From the NCBI GenBank assembly GCA_026026165.1, contig JAPEUD010000037.1, positions 124,001 through 188,000 of the forward strand: DNA of 64,000 nucleotides, read 5' to 3'. The stretch comes from Sarea resinae (taxonomy: Eukaryota). Shown here piece after piece: positions 1,154-9,700 of this stretch. The translations under genes were made by a program, and so were the position numbers. Under the pieces are notes generated by a model that searched no databases, was not told where the DNA came from, and saw only the letters and a list, made by a program, of their open reading frames with translations. Every line of letters begins with the position of its first letter. The first letter of the stretch is position 1.

Positions 1154-4100
1154 TTATTCCCTTTGATCCATGCCTCCCTCGTGCTCCTGCTGGTGTGATT
1201 GCACAGGCGTAGCGCCCAATACCCAGCCTAGCCCGCTCGCCAACCCCCCCGTCACCATGTTCGAGACCACGTCTCTCTTCCTGACCCGGCCTCCACCCTC
1301 GGCGGCTACGAAACTGCCTGCATCGCTACCGGCACTCGCCGTACTGGCGGTTCTGTTGTGCTGCTGCTGTTGCTGCTGTGCTGTGATATCGAACCCTGGC
1401 CCCGCTCCAGTGCGCCTCGTCCCCCGTCCAGCCCCGCCTGCTCTCGTTTCCTTTGTAGAGGAGACAGCAACACCATGAAGCGGAAAGGCAGACCTGGAAA
1501 GGGCCGCGGCGGCGCCTCTAGCAACATCAAAAAGACCCATAGGCGCCTCCTCACCCTTGCTGGCATGTCCGAACTGCCGTCCACCTCGGCGCGCTAGACT
1601 GGTATAATCGTCCTCTTGAAGCATCATACCACCTCCGACGAAGCCGCCGGGGATAGCCGAGGCACGTTTCTTATTCGCGCCGCGGTCATCCCAGGAGGTC
1701 TCTTCCGCGCTTTCCTGCGCCAGGAGGACGGATAGCTCTTCTTCGCATCTGCGCCATGCTGCTAGGATCTCCGAGAGCGCGGCAGGCGGGGCAATGAGGA
1801 GCGATTGCGAGAGAAGATCCATGCGCTTCTGAAGGCGTTGTAGCGAGGCGCTTGTAGCGGTTGTGGTCGTTGCGGCGGACGTAGCGGCATGGGCTGATTT
1901 GCCTAGGCGGTGACGGCCGGCTTGGAAGGCAGCACGCCACGAGATGTCATCTTGATCGGTGGGCGGACTGGGTTGGAGCGCCTGAGAAGATGCAGGCGAG
2001 GGAGGTGTGAGACGATTCAGAACATATGAGTAAGCGGTTTCGAAGTCATCTTCGGCCAGAGCGGCCTCAATGGCCATGCCCGTAATGCGTCGTTCAGCGG
2101 CGCGGGACTGTCGTTCTTGCTCTTCGGGCGTCATGTCCATGACCTGACCGTTGTGATCGCGATTAGTAAGGCCCGCGGCAACAAAGTTACGGCCGATACT
2201 TGTGAGGTCGTCGAGTTTGGTGTAACTTTTGGGGTTCTGGTCGAGGACTTTTTCGAGGAGGAAGATAGGGTCTCGGTGAGCGCGAATGTTGACGGGCTGG
2301 AAGAGGACGCCGTGGTGGAGGGTTAGTGAGTAGAATGATAGAGCGTGAGTGGCAGAGATGAGAGCCTCCACGCGAGCGAAGGCTGGAGAAGTCGGAAAAT
2401 GGTTGCGGAAGGCTTGAAGACTGCGCACACGACGTCAGGACAATTTGTATGGCGGATATCGGGAGAACTACTCACACGTCAGATGCGCGCTTGACGCCAC
2501 CACGAGTCCGATTGCCGTTGCTCGCATTGTCGTAGAAGTTCAAAGATGCGTCCAGAACGGCTTTCTCTACATGAGCCAAGGGAAGGGGCCGTTGGGAAGC
2601 TGGCTGCTCGACGTAAGCCTCAACCGCAAGATGATAGCCTAGAAAAGTGAGCACATTGCCGATAGATTTGATCAACATTACTCCCAGAGCGGGCCGACTT
2701 ACTACTTCCATTGAGGAAAAGCTTGAGAATCTCCAGTTCGGCCGTGCCCTTCTCAACTTTTCCTAAAATGCCAGGCCCTTGTAGAGCCTGACTGCTCTCG
2801 GCGCCCTCTTGAAGCTTTTGCTCCACACCCCATCCCCAGAGCCAGAGTATATCGTCTCTAATTTGAGCCCATTCCTGATCGTCTCTTTTTGGCCTCGTCA
2901 TGATGCTACGGATTATATTCTGAAGTTCATTGGTTTGTTGTTCCTGATTGCCGAACAAATAAAGCTCAGTTACTTGTCTGAGCGAGGCCTGGTGACCGAG
3001 ACGCGCAAGGACACAGGTGGAGAATAGCAACGCCTCAAGAAGAGCGAGATTTTGCTCCGTCGGTTTAGTCAAAGGGTTGTCTGCTCGTAAGAGAGCATTC
3101 TGCAGCAAGGTCGCAGCACTTAGCTCATGCGACGCGGGGAGTTTCGAGTTCATGCTGAGCAGCCTGGTGTGACCCGACGGTAGATTTGGTGGAGGATCTA
3201 ATTGCAGAAGCTGGGATAATCGCACAAGTATGCGATGTACGCCTCGAAGAGCTTCAGCAGTTGCATCGGGATTGGCGAAACAGGCTGCCACCGCCACTTG
3301 TGCATATCGAAGCTCCAACCGCCGCTGAGTCTCTTCCTCGAGATATTCCCCACCATCGTCGTAACCACCGTAATCAACATCTCCAGGGCCATCCCAATCT
3401 TCCACTGCGCGTACTATGAGTGGAAAATCTGTCCTTGCTGCTGACAAAAGCCACTCAAATACATCTTCCCACCCACTGCCTTGTGTCAAACTTGCATCCC
3501 CTGAATCCTGGGTCTCCAGACCCGGCTCTTGATCCGCAGATGCAATAGAGGATTGAGTTTCAATCTTCCGTCTCTTCCGTCGATCGTCACCGCACATCCA
3601 TGGGCCAACCAAGCTCCTCAAATCCCTTGCAACGTGATCCGCCTGGCCTTCGTGTTTTGATTGCGATAGTAGAGCATCAACACCAGCAAGGCCTTCCAGA
3701 CGCTCGAATTCAGCTAATGCCAAAGCGGACTCCGCTTGCGGGTAGTATTCATAATTAAGACGCAGCAGCGGTAGTAGCGTGGAGATGAGCCATATGCGTA
3801 GGTAGTTGGAATGGTCGAGGAAAGGAACAAATAATTGGGGGAGAAGAGTCAGGAGTCCCGCATTCTCGTCGATGAGATAAGCGCGGTGGATCAGGAAGAG
3901 AGTGAGGCTATCGGTCGAGATGCTTGGCGGGATCGATGAGGGGGCCAGGGGAAGTAGATGTAGCTTCCGAACACGTTTACGAGCTTGAACTTCGGAAAGC
4001 TCTTTTACGGGACTGATGTCGATACCGCCAGCCGCATCATCATCGAAGTCGCCATGTACCAATTCGTTGAGGTAAGGCGTGTAGAGCTGTGGATCCGTGC

Positions 4101-4263
4101 ATTCAGGTAGAAAGCTCAGGAGGATGCGCAGAACCAGCGTGGGGTGGAGGGTTTTGGAGTGTAATGCCGTGAGGTTTCGCAGGGCAGATATGTTGGAGTC
4201 TGATGCTAAATGAACAGCCAGCAAGACACAATGAGCTGGTGAGATATTCGCTGGATCAGCCAT
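1154..4263 (-). CDS. SEC39: Sec39-domain secretory pathway (Dsl1 complex) protein; exons ~4263-2703, 2638-2476, 2420-1154
   Basis: Three ORF segments joined by GT-AG introns; motifs 'FYDNASNGNRTRGGVKRASD', 'ATHALSFYSLTL', 'ALAEDDFETAYSYV', 'RRCEEEL' resemble filamentous-fungal Sec39 proteins. Confidence 0.75.
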
Positions 4264-4710
4264 GGCTGGTATCCGGTCTGCTGTTGCTTGCTCTCGCGGT
4301 GACGATGCTGCTTCAGCTACTTCCCATATGGGGATTTGTTGTTTCGAGTTGACAGCTACTTTGGTGTCTATGACCCCCCGTACCCTTATCGTAACAAAAT
4401 TGCTCGATCTAAAGTGAACTGAGATTCTTCTATTGATCCGAACTGTCTTGCCTCTCTTGCAATGAAAATATAGATATAAAAATTCTCAAATATATTCAAT
4501 TGTTTTCTAATCACCAGTGATGCCTTGCTATCAATCTGTCCGGAGTTGTGTGTGATGGAACAATTGATGCCGGGCCATGTAATCCTTTTTCCCTAGAACC
4601 CCCACCATACCAGTAGACACATATTCAGAAGCACAATACCCATAATCATTCCAGCCTTTTCCCGATTTTCAATCCAATCATCAAAACTATGCCAGCAACA
4701 AGGCTGCACC

Positions 4711-7534
4711 CTACAACTCTCCAGCCCCGCTCTCCGCGTCGACTCTCAGTGACGTATCGACATCGACATCGACATGTGAGTCTTTCTCGTCCAAAAAGCT
4801 CAAACCCTCCATAGCCTTACCGCCACACGCTCGTTCCAGCGTCAGGAAGGCGAAGTGGCCCCCAATAACGGGACGAGCGAAGAAGTTCGGGCCGGGAAAG
4901 CCACCGTCACCTTCAGTATTGTAGAGATCCGTGAATGGGCGATCTGGATGACTCTAAATAAGCAAGAGCAGAGAATGAAAGGGATAGTGCATACCGGTAA
5001 CTGTTTCGTTGATCCAAAGAGCCACGCCAGCCAAGATTTCTTCTCTGACTTTCTTGCTCGTAACAGCTGCGGCAAAAAATTCCCAGTCGCTCTTGGTATA
5101 CAAATGCCTGTTGTCGAGAGGAAGCCCATAGCGTTGATTGACAGCGTGGTACCAGTCGCTTTGAACCTTGTAGATGTGATTAGGAATAAAGCTGGTTTCA
5201 GTGCTGTTGCTGGGGTCGCCGTGCTTCAACGGCTTCTGGCCTTCCAAAGTCGATGCGGCGGGACCGTTGTGCGAGGATGGAAGGTGGAAGCAAAGCAGCG
5301 AATCGGCAAAGAGGTTGTAAAGGGTCGTCCAGGAACCATACCAATCGTAAGCTAATTTGGCGTGGGTGCCGTCTCGAGACATGCCGAACTCTTCCCATTT
5401 CTTGATGTAGACTTCGGAGATGTTCTGAAAGAATCGTAAGCCGACGCAAGCCAGCCTCAATGATAAGATGTTACCTTGTAATACTCTACATCTTCCGGTA
5501 TACCAGCAACATCGGCAATTTCACTCATAGCTTTGATACCGATTATGCCTTTGAGAGCAAGGTTTGTCTGCAAAGCCAGCCAGCCAGCAAAGTCATCGGT
5601 CGACACTAGAAGCTGTTAGACTTTCTCATACAAAAAGAAGGGGGGCGTGAACCGACATTGGTTTTGTGGCTCTAATGTAAATTCTACGAGATAGCCTGTC
5701 CACTGTTTCCATAACTTGTAGCTTCTCTGGACCCATTTCTTGGCCTGTTTTTCGCCGTTCGTTTCCCCTCCCCACTTGTTGTCGAGGCCAAAGATGCTAT
5801 CTCGAACCTCAAGGGTACCAAGGGCAAAGGGACTGCCTTCAGCAGCTTCATCAAAGTCCCCACCTCCCTGGCTAGACCATATTGAGCCAGCAGAGCTCTC
5901 AGTTTCGTACCTCAAGGAGTTGACGAGAGCAAGACCCATGATGAGAATATCACCACATTCTTCGACAGGCATGTATTCGTCGTTTCCATCTGCATGGCCG
6001 GTGGCGTTGGGGAAATGATAACCCAGATCGTGCATGGCGTATTTGTTGGGGTACTGGCCACTCAAGATGTGCTCAATCAGTGGTTCGAGAAGGTAAGCTA
6101 GCCATCGAGGATTCGTATAGAGGAAGAATGGGAAAGCCGGGAAAATGACATCGATGGTCTGGAAGTTCCCGTTTGACGATATCTCCTTGAGGAAGAGTAT
6201 GGGATTCTCGGGAGTGCCAGAGAAGCTTGTGGCGCCAATGGTTTGGCGTGCGGAAAGGGCGACGATATCTACGTAGTCATCCGAGCCAGATTTATAGGCA
6301 TCCGCAGCAAGCTGTGCTGAGTAGTTGCCCGCAAGTTTGGTAGCAGTTTCAACATCCAGGTAATGGAACATCAGCAAGGCTTCAGTCGAGAAGAACCAGG
6401 ATGCCCAAAGCGGTCTCATGAATGTCAAACCTCGAGCTGAGGCGAACTGCACGACCGGATCTTGGATATGTGCAATTGTGAATAGGACGCTGTCGCTGGT
6501 CTTTTCACTGGAGTTGAGATGGAATGATTTGGAAAAGGCAAAGACCGGCTCGTCTTCCATGATTCCGCGAAATGAGTTGTCCACCTCGTTTTGGAGCGTA
6601 CCGGTCCTGGAAAAGCGCTGTCTCAAGAGAGCAGAAGTACCAGACTCGTGTCGAACGTCCTTGAAGAGTCAGCACCCCCGATATCTCAGCTTTGATGGCT
6701 TTGTACACTTACCAACGGTGCAGTGAAATGCAATGTCCCCCACTCCGCTTGATCAGCCCATTCCGTCAACAATTGCTCAGTCTCCCTTTTCACCTTCCAG
6801 GTCTTTAATCCTTTCTTGTCGTCCCCAAGAGCTGACTCTGACAACTCCCAGGTAATTCGGTTGTCCCGGTTGCCACTGACCCATTGTCCATTGACGTCGA
6901 TGTATACATCAACGTCAAAGCCTCCGTACACATAAACGCTAATGTAAGACGCAGGGATTGATTGTCTTAAGGTCGATGTTGGGGTGATCGGTGACAAGAA
7001 AGAGAGGACAATCTCGAGTGGCTCGAGTCCGGAGCTTTTCGCCGGGGGAGGAATTCGGTAGGTGAGATTGGTGACGGAAGCATCGTATTTGGCACCAACG
7101 TACGTTGGATAAGATAGATTATAGCTATGCACCGTGAGCTTCTTCATAGGTCGTCAGGTTGGAAACCTATATACCCTTCACTTTTCCCCGGTGGCTGGAG
7201 CGAGTCCTGAGGTCTACCCAACAACGGATAGACCTTTTCTGTTTCTGGGACTGCGGCTAATACGGAGAATCCAATCTAAGTGATTTAATGGGAGTTAGAG
7301 ATGGCCAAGGTTACATAGCAGCGGTCGTAGCTCAAAAGAAAGGGTGGCTACCTCCTGTCCGGTCCAAAACATCGGCCATTTGCTCCACGGCGGCTCTCTG
7401 GCATCATTGAGCCAAGTGCTCAAATACGGATTGCGGACAATCAGTGGAAGCACTGGTGGGGTGAGCGTCGAGGCCTCAACGGTGCTTGCCAGAAGCGCCG
7501 AGGCAGCAACAGCCGCATGTACGAGCCAGCGCAT
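4711..7534 (-). CDS. gtaA: Secreted glutaminase A (GtaA-like), multi-exon
   Basis: Signal peptide then 'PPVLPLIVRNPYLSTW', 'LFLKEISSNGNFQTIDV', 'EYMPVEECG', 'YGLPLDNRHLYTKSDWE'; final exon 'DRPFTDLY...FFARPVIGGHF' ending at TAG 4711-4713. Confidence 0.88.
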
Positions 7535-8265: not shown

Positions 8266-8271
8266 AAAAAA
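8266..8271 (-). terminator. Pol III oligo-T terminator of tRNA-Glu
   Basis: TTTTTT on the minus strand just 3' of the discriminator base. Confidence 0.8.
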
Positions 8272-8275
8272 GATG

Positions 8276-8407
8276 TTCGGATACCGGGAATCGAACCCGG
8301 ATCTGCCCGGAGCTATTGTATGAAAGCGGGCTGGAACTTGTTAGTTATGCGACCGAAGGCGTTGGAGGAGGAAGAAGTACCGATGCTAACCGTTACACCA
8401 TATCCGA
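8276..8407 (-). tRNA. tRNA-Glu(TTC) with two introns: 50-nt GT-AG insertion (8380-8331, between positions 27/28) and 10-nt canonical intron (8320-8311, positions 37/38)
   Basis: Acceptor TCGGATA/TATCCGA, D-arm GTGT-AACGGTTA-GCAT, anticodon stem GCCCG/CGGGC after removing both inserts, loop CT-TTC-A-C, T-arm CCGGG-TTCGATT-CCCGG, T6 run 5 nt downstream. Confidence 0.92.
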
Positions 8408-8437
8408 TTGTTGTTGAGAAATCTGCTCTGATCTTCC

Positions 8438-9700
8438 TTATATATCGTCTTCCTTGAGCTCTCGTCCTTGCGAAAGAAATGAGGATCGCGAGATCCTCCT
8501 TATTGGACTAAGCTCTTCCTTGTCAGTACTACTGCAATACGGTACTCGGACTGGTTCGAGCTCGGCGACGCTTCCCCTCTGAACAATAACGATGCCATTC
8601 GACTCCGGCTCCGCCACCAACTCTGCAATGGCCGCGTAGTCATCTCGTCTGGCTTGATTACCTCTCTAGATCCCGGGTCTTCTATGCTGTCCTTCTCGAT
8701 GCCAAGTCTCTCCTTTAATATTTTGATTGCACCCCTTCTCTAGAGGCTTAGCCCCTGATTCCCCACCTTGCATTTGTTGTTGCTCTTCGGCTTGATGGCT
8801 TGCCTCTTTCCATCCGCATGATCAAATGCGGCATATCACGCTGGGATCCGAATTCTGAATATTTCCTTTCCCCGAAATTCAGATAAGAATGCCTCGAATG
8901 TCGACTTCGTCAGCCCTACGGGCCCCAGTCGGAACAATATTTTCGTTGTTTGCCCAAGTTTGAGACGACACGATCGATTGGTTCCTATTGGCACGACGAT
9001 CTGACACCCGTTCAGCTTCTCCCGCACATACAGGCCGCTCCATCTCACGTACGTGGGTATCCATGATGGCGACACTGACTCCATTCCTTCCGGCTTTAAT
9101 AATGCTCCATTTAACGCCTGCTCCCCCCAACCCTGGCTAGGTCACTATGGTTTTGCATTCACTTCCAGCGAGGCGGTAATTCGCTTGTCGAATTGCCCTA
9201 GCTTTCTCTGAATTGGCCGTAGCCCATTTCCTTACATGTTCCGAGGATAAGCCTGAAGCTTTACCCCCTAAAGACGATGGCCCCTGGGGAAATGTTATTT
9301 GGGCTTCGAATCCTGTAGCCTGACACAGACCCTTCTATCCTTGGGGCTGATCCCATTGCTTTGCTTTGGCTAACTCCCAGTATCGGGCGTTCATATATGG
9401 CGCGTATAGTTCCGCTCCAAGGCAGAGCAAGCCCTCCATAAGGTAAACGAGAGGAGAAGCCGGTATTTCTCTTTCCTTGCTGCTAGTATGTAGTATTCAT
9501 CTTCTCATCAAGCTCAGACAGCTGTTCCCGATCCCTATTTCTACCATCGGACGTCTCGGGACCGGTATCCGGCAAGTCTTACCCGGTGCCTTATAATTCG
9601 AAATATCGTGCATCACAGATCTCGAAATGTCGTGTTAGCTTCATAGTAGACCCTGTTGTGTATATTCATTTATTAATGAAGGGGCGCGCGAACCCCTATA
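8438..9700 (-). pseudogene. Degenerate coding relic, possibly a distant member of the GIY-YIG-associated family found at 24-32 kb
   Basis: Stop-interrupted frames, e.g. 'VYLMEGLLCLGAELY...WDQPQG*KGLCQATGFE...VRKWATANSEKARAIRQ', loosely like 'CLLAEAIYTSWLGA...WRGACTHSPLAE' plus a basic tail. Confidence 0.3.

Follow-up and report, generated by a model that had tools for sequence, protein, structure and literature searches.

A fungal tRNA-Glu(UUC) gene with an apparent spliceosomal intron ten nucleotides upstream of its canonical tRNA intron

Can a single tRNA precursor depend on two different splicing machineries, and if so, which of the two acts first? The question is raised by a gene in the window, the stretch of 64,000 nucleotides that was analysed here (G000:C75:124001-188000, from an assembly of 25.5 Mb in 143 contigs). 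Over 84% of its length, a Sec39 ORF at 2620-4485 of the window matches at 100% identity a protein labelled as from Sarea resinae, an ascomycete of the class Sareomycetes. At window positions 8407-8276, on the minus strand, lies a tRNA-Glu(UUC) gene of fungal type that carries two inserts, one of 50 nt and one of 10 nt.

The gene and its place in the tRNA set

The elements of the locus, in the order of transcription, are the following:

8438..8444, minus strand: TATA-like element, -37 to -31 relative to the tRNA 5' end
8408..8418, minus strand: CAA-rich leader, the likely transcription start region (inferred)
[quoted passage not shown]
8331..8380, minus strand: putative 50-nt U2-type GT-AG intron at tRNA positions 27/28; donor GTACTT (weak), acceptor CAG
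8340..8345, minus strand: candidate branch site ACTAAC with branch A 8341, 10 nt from the intron 3' end
8321..8330, minus strand: exon 2, 10 nt, positions 28-37; C32 is 8326 and the anticodon TTC is 8324-8322
8311..8320, minus strand: 10-nt canonical tRNA intron at 37/38, directly after A37, with a BHL-type motif
8276..8310, minus strand: exon 3, positions 38-73; B box 8297-8287
8266..8271, minus strand: T6 run, Pol III terminator-like, read from the sequence

When both inserts are taken out, all four stems are paired in a perfect cloverleaf and ARAGORN calls tRNA-Glu(TTC), a call it also makes after removal of the 50-nt insert. The cloverleaf, A box, B box and oligo-T terminator of a functional Pol III tRNA gene are all present. 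No protein gene was found over the locus, and overlap with one is unlikely because the nearest start codon on the same strand, which is the likely start of a downstream glutaminase A-like gene (PF16335), lies at 7534. In the raw window ARAGORN found nothing without intron search and, with intron search, miscalled the gene as Ile; the latter call assigns the 50-nt insert to a single long canonical intron and was rejected, as it breaks the anticodon stem. Rfam gave no match at this locus in the window at the gathering threshold. Standard tRNA finders would thus miss or mislabel such genes.

The predicted product is identical at 70/72 positions to the intron-less environmental Glu(UUC) gene L312 and colinear with it at both junctions, and in a contig of run X3, exon 1 runs straight into the 10-nt middle piece, where the anticodon is CUC, and this into exon 3, with neither insert. 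By this comparison of sequences both exon junctions are confirmed by intron-less homologs, and the two-insert architecture is real and no chance artefact. One record of run X1, which may be the source of this DNA, spans the stretch without change. The coordinates given for the exons and both inserts in the initial annotation proved correct throughout, and the two introns are indeed separated by a middle exon of only 10 nt (8330-8321).

The tRNA census of the genome covered all 81 T-loop matches, 55 Rfam matches and a by-eye subset of the terminator-anchored matches; anticodons were assigned by hand, and seven abnormal tRNA-like loci and the mitochondrial-type tRNAs were left out. It comprises 63 ordinary tRNA sequences with 44 anticodons (including Leu(CAG), which has C33). 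A standard eukaryotic tRNA set has 45 anticodons, and 44 of these were found besides the UUC of the window locus, which is the one otherwise missing. A second Glu(UUC) gene was found neither among the 81 T-loop matches, the Rfam matches and the terminator-anchored subset, nor with patterns for the Glu 5' end and the anticodon arm. Since each of the 13 other U34 anticodons was found in one gene, a single copy is the norm. The three Glu paralogs have the anticodon CUC and canonical introns only; a C34 anticodon cannot read GAA, the codon at 1206 of 2749 Glu positions in 90 long ORFs (about 44%). Being the only Glu(UUC) gene found in an otherwise complete tRNA set, the window gene is probably essential, the single copy being counted in an assembly of 143 contigs with non-exhaustive patterns, of which the T-loop patterns overlooked Lys(UUU), a gene that came up only in a separate search.

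The gene recovered by that search (L175, G000:C79:165200-165290, +) is a single Lys(UUU) gene with A54 in its T loop, as in initiator tRNA, and was missed by the Rfam list too. Several candidates for a further Glu(UUC) gene were discarded: L119 offers a hairpin like a D arm, with CTTTCA, and lacks a T arm and an acceptor partner in the DNA examined, L200-L203 have no tRNA body, and 29 further loci (9 + 20) from one of the pattern searches were likewise rejected. That search had 25 more matches, one being the known C70 paralog and 24 lying outside the examination. The genome also holds two tandem tRNA-like genes (L021/L027, G000:C1:167539-167867, -) with perfect arms, C33 and the anticodon TTA, which would pair with the UAA stop codon; they are perhaps pseudogenes or suppressor-like. 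Six other tRNA-like loci (L060, L061, L065, L073, L080 and L095), kept outside the tRNA counts, combine an A box, a B box and a terminator with anticodon arms of abnormal form. An insert of 228 nt is present in L095 and an internal tandem repeat in L065, and the four of the six that were tested gave no Rfam match at E < 0.8.

Two inserts with different signals

The 50-nt insert has GT at its 5' end and YAG at its 3' end, at the very borders that the mature tRNA requires. Its GT...CTRAY...YAG layout was found in 134 of 2,000,000 random 50-mers from the window (6.7e-5), and of the 28 GT/GC-AG excisions possible in the gene, a single one restores both the D and the anticodon stems. Among the canonical tRNA introns of the genome (n=57) one starts with GT, two end with AG and none does both. 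The introns of the genome were characterized with an unsupervised mixture model, which inferred ~107 introns from 429 branch-acceptor candidates in ~720 kb; an ORF-bridging intron search, which gave 7 GT introns against 1-8 for decoy dinucleotides, was dropped in favour of this model. The inferred introns have most of their weight at 45-55 nt, a modal branch distance of 10 and G+5 at 0.83. Both the length of the insert and its branch-to-acceptor distance (10) are modal for this set, and its branch and acceptor fit as well. A repeat-family search with the insert (as DNA) returned the locus itself and exon pieces of one paralog, with 2 candidates scored and two known paralogs missed.

The donor fits less well. 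GTACTT lacks G+5 and so falls outside the extended consensus GTRNG; its score of 2.9 bits, where the median is 8.7, lies under all 77 confident donors (1st percentile 6.8) of a model that is biased towards the consensus. Upstream of branch sites GTACTT was observed once where 2.9 were expected, which is no excess. In the D loop a cryptic GT pairs equally well with the U1 5' end (-4.3 kcal/mol each), and the last G of the acceptor is predicted to be paired in the anticodon stem. On the other side, donors of the form GTANHT, also without G+5, are in excess (47 vs 30, z 2.9), and the donor of the third intron of U6 in this genome (see below) scores -0.06 bits, lower than that of the Glu(UUC) insert. 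Neurospora spliceosomes are described as accepting >200 donor variants (PMC4408805). The leaning of the model towards the consensus, the GTANHT excess, the weaker U6 donor and the donor variety in Neurospora count against resting much on the low donor score. The 50-nt insert may be likened to the mRNA-type introns of fungal U6, all U2-type sequence signals being present save the extended donor, and it is very likely that the spliceosome removes it in vivo.

The 10-nt insert had been described as an intron one base 3' of the TTC anticodon, and this is borne out, with its border at 37/38. ARAGORN sets it one base later (38/39); the 37/38 border is favoured because the intron-less homologs have C38. 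The proposed pairing of its antepenultimate G with C32 also holds: the third-last base, 8313, is G, its partner is 8326, and the pair C32-G(-3) has a predicted probability of 0.69. The neighbouring U33-A(-4) is predicted at 0.66, and a competing register, G31-C(-2), at 0.57. The BHL motif has 3/4 central pairs, 3/3 outer pairs and a 3-nt bulge. An A-I pair is present in 42 of the 57 canonical introns of the genome and is therefore an ordinary feature. Two PF01974 genes lie above the cut-off in the genome, and we read them as Sen2-like and Sen34-like. With the 37/38 position, the A-I pair and BHL motif, and the SEN catalytic subunits all found, the 10-nt insert is, by its sequence features, an ordinary SEN-type intron. 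The Sen2-like ORF (L360, G000:C109) has a moderately hydrophobic N-terminal segment at residues ~55-72 (mean hydropathy 1.24), which might be tied to membrane association. Canonical introns occur in 57 of the 62 distinct tRNA sequences of this genome, against the much lower 24% reported for budding yeast (PMC10275265).

Two other accounts of the 50-nt insert were weighed at this point. It might be a BHB intron cut by SEN, as in Cyanidioschyzon merolae and archaea, or both inserts might leave as one piece; tRNAs in which one endonuclease cuts several introns have been described (PMC3978253), and a 68-nt excision could have its 3' end at a TAG that lies within the short intron. We regard this as highly improbable, since no BHB is present at the insert (2/4 or 1/4 central pairs in two registers, and 1/3 pairs in each of the outer and inner helices), excision in one piece would delete the anticodon exon, and the GT, branch and YAG, whose exact fit to the borders is rare by chance, are kept in six related introns. 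The gene might also have been disabled recently, its decaying intron no longer being removed and a working Glu(UUC) gene being missing from the assembly or the searches. The donor is weaker than the GTRAGT of the relatives described below, the assembly is in fragments, and a gene can escape pattern searches, as Lys(UUU) did at first. Recent loss of function is nevertheless quite improbable: the exons, so similar to the intron-less homolog and with every stem paired, carry no disabling change, branch and acceptor are intact, the other 44 anticodons were all recovered, and U6 has a donor that scores weaker still.

Relatives and other small RNA genes with GT-AG introns

A metagenome search with the 5' exon pattern gave no matches. 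Scanning with the 3' exon brought up 116 loci, 25 of which were dropped because the DNA examined held no fungal Glu 5' end; the remaining 91 are divided into 69 CUC and 22 UUC loci. None of the 69 Glu(CUC) loci has a strong-donor GT-AG insert. The 22 UUC genes comprise 11 without introns, 8 with the canonical intron only and 3 with two GT-AG introns in addition to the canonical one. In these three genes (L288, L259 and L262, on metagenome contigs) the GT-AG introns lie at 16/17 and 26/27, 10 nt apart. The genes are alike in their exons (71-72/72), and their introns agree at 36-41 of 47-55 positions, with donor, branch and acceptor kept; such retention of splice signals amid diverged introns is expected if the signals are in use. 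The three are possibly close kin and hence not three independent events. Their donors read GTRAGT, and that of the window gene is weaker. No homolog shares the intron position 27/28, the nearest one in the relatives being 26/27. The 3' half of the window insert bears a closer resemblance to the D-loop intron of the relatives than to their 26/27 intron (summed score 116 vs 67), a score reached by 12 of 5000 shuffles and by 1 of 93 intron-like controls from the genome. The case for homology between the insert and the D-loop intron is no more than suggestive, and we consider it unlikely, though conceivable, that an intron has moved within the Glu(UUC) gene. Among the metagenome Glu(CUC) genes (in the range L244-L359) a conserved TCGGAR word, which repeats the tRNA start, lies 8-32 nt upstream in 51 of 59; it may represent either a leader hairpin or an acceptor-stem insert.

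Within the genome itself, the only U6 match found (L144, G000:C72:136267-136530, +) has three GT-AG introns of 53, 53 and 49 nt, with two 11-nt exons between them, a B-box-like word in the first intron and a TATA upstream. If L144 is a working U6 gene, the fungus must splice a Pol III-type RNA. A Ser(GCU) gene (L069, G000:C52:232454-232686, +) has, next to a canonical intron, a 132-nt GT-AG intron after nucleotide 20, in the D loop, with a strong donor and an ACTAAC branch; its paralog L111 is without the GT-AG intron.

Overall, the proposal that this tRNA would need two splicing machineries is well supported by the comparative evidence, because no other Glu(UUC) gene was found, the cloverleaf is restored exactly, a BHB is absent, U6 has three introns of this kind, and relatives are built alike.

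Probable order of removal and its consequences

A pathway from the spliceosome to SEN had been proposed on the ground that SEN recognises the folded tRNA body, so that the 50-nt intron has to go first. The order stands as the most likely one; the reason is weaker than claimed, because the anticodon arm is predicted to form in the unspliced precursor. Since the insert ends in G, the anticodon stem can form there as it does after splicing: the last G of the insert takes the place of G27 and is predicted to pair with C43 (0.99), and pairs 28-30 (0.99) and the A-I pair (0.69) are predicted alike before and after splicing. Only the D arm is predicted to be destabilised (0.5 unspliced vs 0.96-0.99 spliced). 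A compartment argument, with the nucleus first and the mitochondrial surface thereafter, appears better than the folding argument. The spliceosome is nuclear, and budding and fission yeast bracket the filamentous ascomycetes phylogenetically. In both of these yeasts SEN sits on the surface of mitochondria (PMC10275265). As to the enzyme itself, human TSEN cleaves isolated anticodon stem-loops, slowly (PMC10275265), and its choice of site is affected by insertions in the anticodon arm (PMC10485636). In the multi-intron tRNAs of C. merolae the 37/38 intron is reported to be removed always last (PMC3978253). The timing of U6 splicing is treated in 10.1101/2023.01.27.525755.

The A box, B box, TATA and T6 run suggest that Pol III would transcribe the gene into a single precursor of ~150 nt. 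In the nucleus the U2 spliceosome would then excise the 50-nt intron and join G27 to C28, as the sequence signals, the exact restoration and the precedent suggest. With the spliceosome acting first, the 10-nt exon would be no micro-exon, because the downstream exon is then 55 nt plus the trailer. The end-processed pre-tRNA would be exported, and SEN, with the fungal ligase, would excise the 10-nt intron at 37/38, introns at this position being canonically removed by SEN with a ligase. The order would be set mainly by enzyme location; a half-unfolded D arm would help and the anticodon arm would not. We hold the whole pathway, spliceosome first, to be reasonably probable, and, given that the spliceosome removes the insert, it is likely that it mostly acts first. 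It had also been pointed out that the insert lengthens the spacing between A box and B box; this is true (104 nt) but unremarkable in the genome, where 6 of 62 other tRNA sequences have a spacing of >=104 nt from canonical introns alone.

Both machineries could also act with the order left free, or with SEN often first, the precursor being exported, cut by SEN and returned to the nucleus, or SEN being nuclear in this lineage. The equal predicted probability of the anticodon stem and the A-I pair in the unspliced precursor would allow this, the weak donor would slow the spliceosome, and yeast is known to return aberrant tRNAs by retrograde import (PMC10275265). We consider it unlikely, as an extra cycle of export and import would be required and the C. 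merolae order, with the 37/38 intron last, speaks against it. A different possibility is that the spliceosomal step takes place on a capped transcript: one made by Pol II from the TATA, with the tRNA cut out of it, or one of a capped minority of Pol III transcripts. The TATA and the CAA-rich start are common to the window gene and 3/3 intron-bearing relatives and occur in 0/11 other Glu(UUC) homologs checked; a CTCAAYA word <=16 nt upstream is present in 4 of 68 tRNA-like genes of the genome, the window gene included, and also in L288, L259 and L262. A T5 run lies within the second intron of L262, and in yeast a cap is carried by 5-22% of the pre-tRNAs (PMC10275265). A capped intermediate is improbable nonetheless: the A box, the B box and the T6 run are intact, a TATA-like word 20-48 nt upstream is also present in 15 of 62 other tRNA sequences and a TATA precedes U6, none is evident upstream of the Ser(GCU) gene that has a GT-AG intron, and the U6 of S. 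pombe is a spliced Pol III transcript (PMC5855946).

For the favoured reading, a Pol III precursor spliced by the spliceosome and then by SEN, the closest known case is the mRNA-type intron that fungi such as Schizosaccharomyces pombe have in U6 (Tani and Ohshima 1989, 1991; Canzler et al. 2016; reviewed in PMC5855946). Shared features are a short GT-branch-AG intron, a structured Pol III-type RNA, lineage-specific positions and several introns per gene. Unlike U6, the host here is a tRNA and no component of the spliceosome, and a second, protein-catalysed splicing step would follow. A host of this kind leaves no room for explaining the insertion by reverse splicing at the active site. Kohrer, Vogel and Domdey reportedly saw in 1990 that an engineered yeast tRNA precursor with a pre-mRNA intron is spliced by the spliceosome in vivo; their system was an artificial construct, whereas the window locus is a natural gene. 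Spliceosomal introns are likewise described in other abundant fungal non-coding RNAs, namely U1, U2 and U5 snRNA and ascomycete rRNA (Takahashi 1993, 1996; Bhattacharya 2000; PMC5855946), but these are Pol II or Pol I transcripts and none needs the tRNA endonuclease. The 10-nt intron has the position, the A-I pair and the 3-nt bulge of the canonical eukaryotic 37/38 intron, which is characterized by the BHL motif and the A-I pair and removed by SEN/TSEN (PMC10275265, PMC10485636); it differs in sharing its precursor with an apparent spliceosomal intron 10 nt upstream. The multi-intron tRNAs of C. merolae and archaea also have several introns, one of them outside 37/38, but all of these are BHB introns cut by the tRNA endonuclease (PMC3978253), whereas the 50-nt insert has spliceosomal signals and no BHB.

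Passages of recent reviews treat tRNA splicing as spliceosome-independent (PMC13149111, PMC12530127, PMC10275265) and place eukaryotic tRNA introns at 37/38 (PMC10275265, PMC10485636), and the string 'spliceosom' is absent from the text of a review from 2026 on the tRNA genes of photosynthetic organisms (PMC13578239). No natural tRNA gene with a spliceosomal intron was found in the literature covered, which consisted mostly of open papers. What appears to be new here is a spliceosomal intron in a new class of host, an apparently essential single-copy tRNA that would also need SEN. A natural class of spliceosome-dependent tRNA genes in filamentous fungi, to which the sole GAA decoder of this genome would belong with its weak-donor intron and the spliceosome acting before SEN, seems to us fairly probable.

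If this is true, about 44% of the glutamate codons would depend on a weak-donor intron that is removed from a Pol III transcript, and the relatives would fit two spliceosomal introns and one SEN intron into a 72-nt tRNA. An essential tRNA that needs both systems would overturn, for fungi, the view that tRNA splicing is independent of the spliceosome. [quoted passage not shown]
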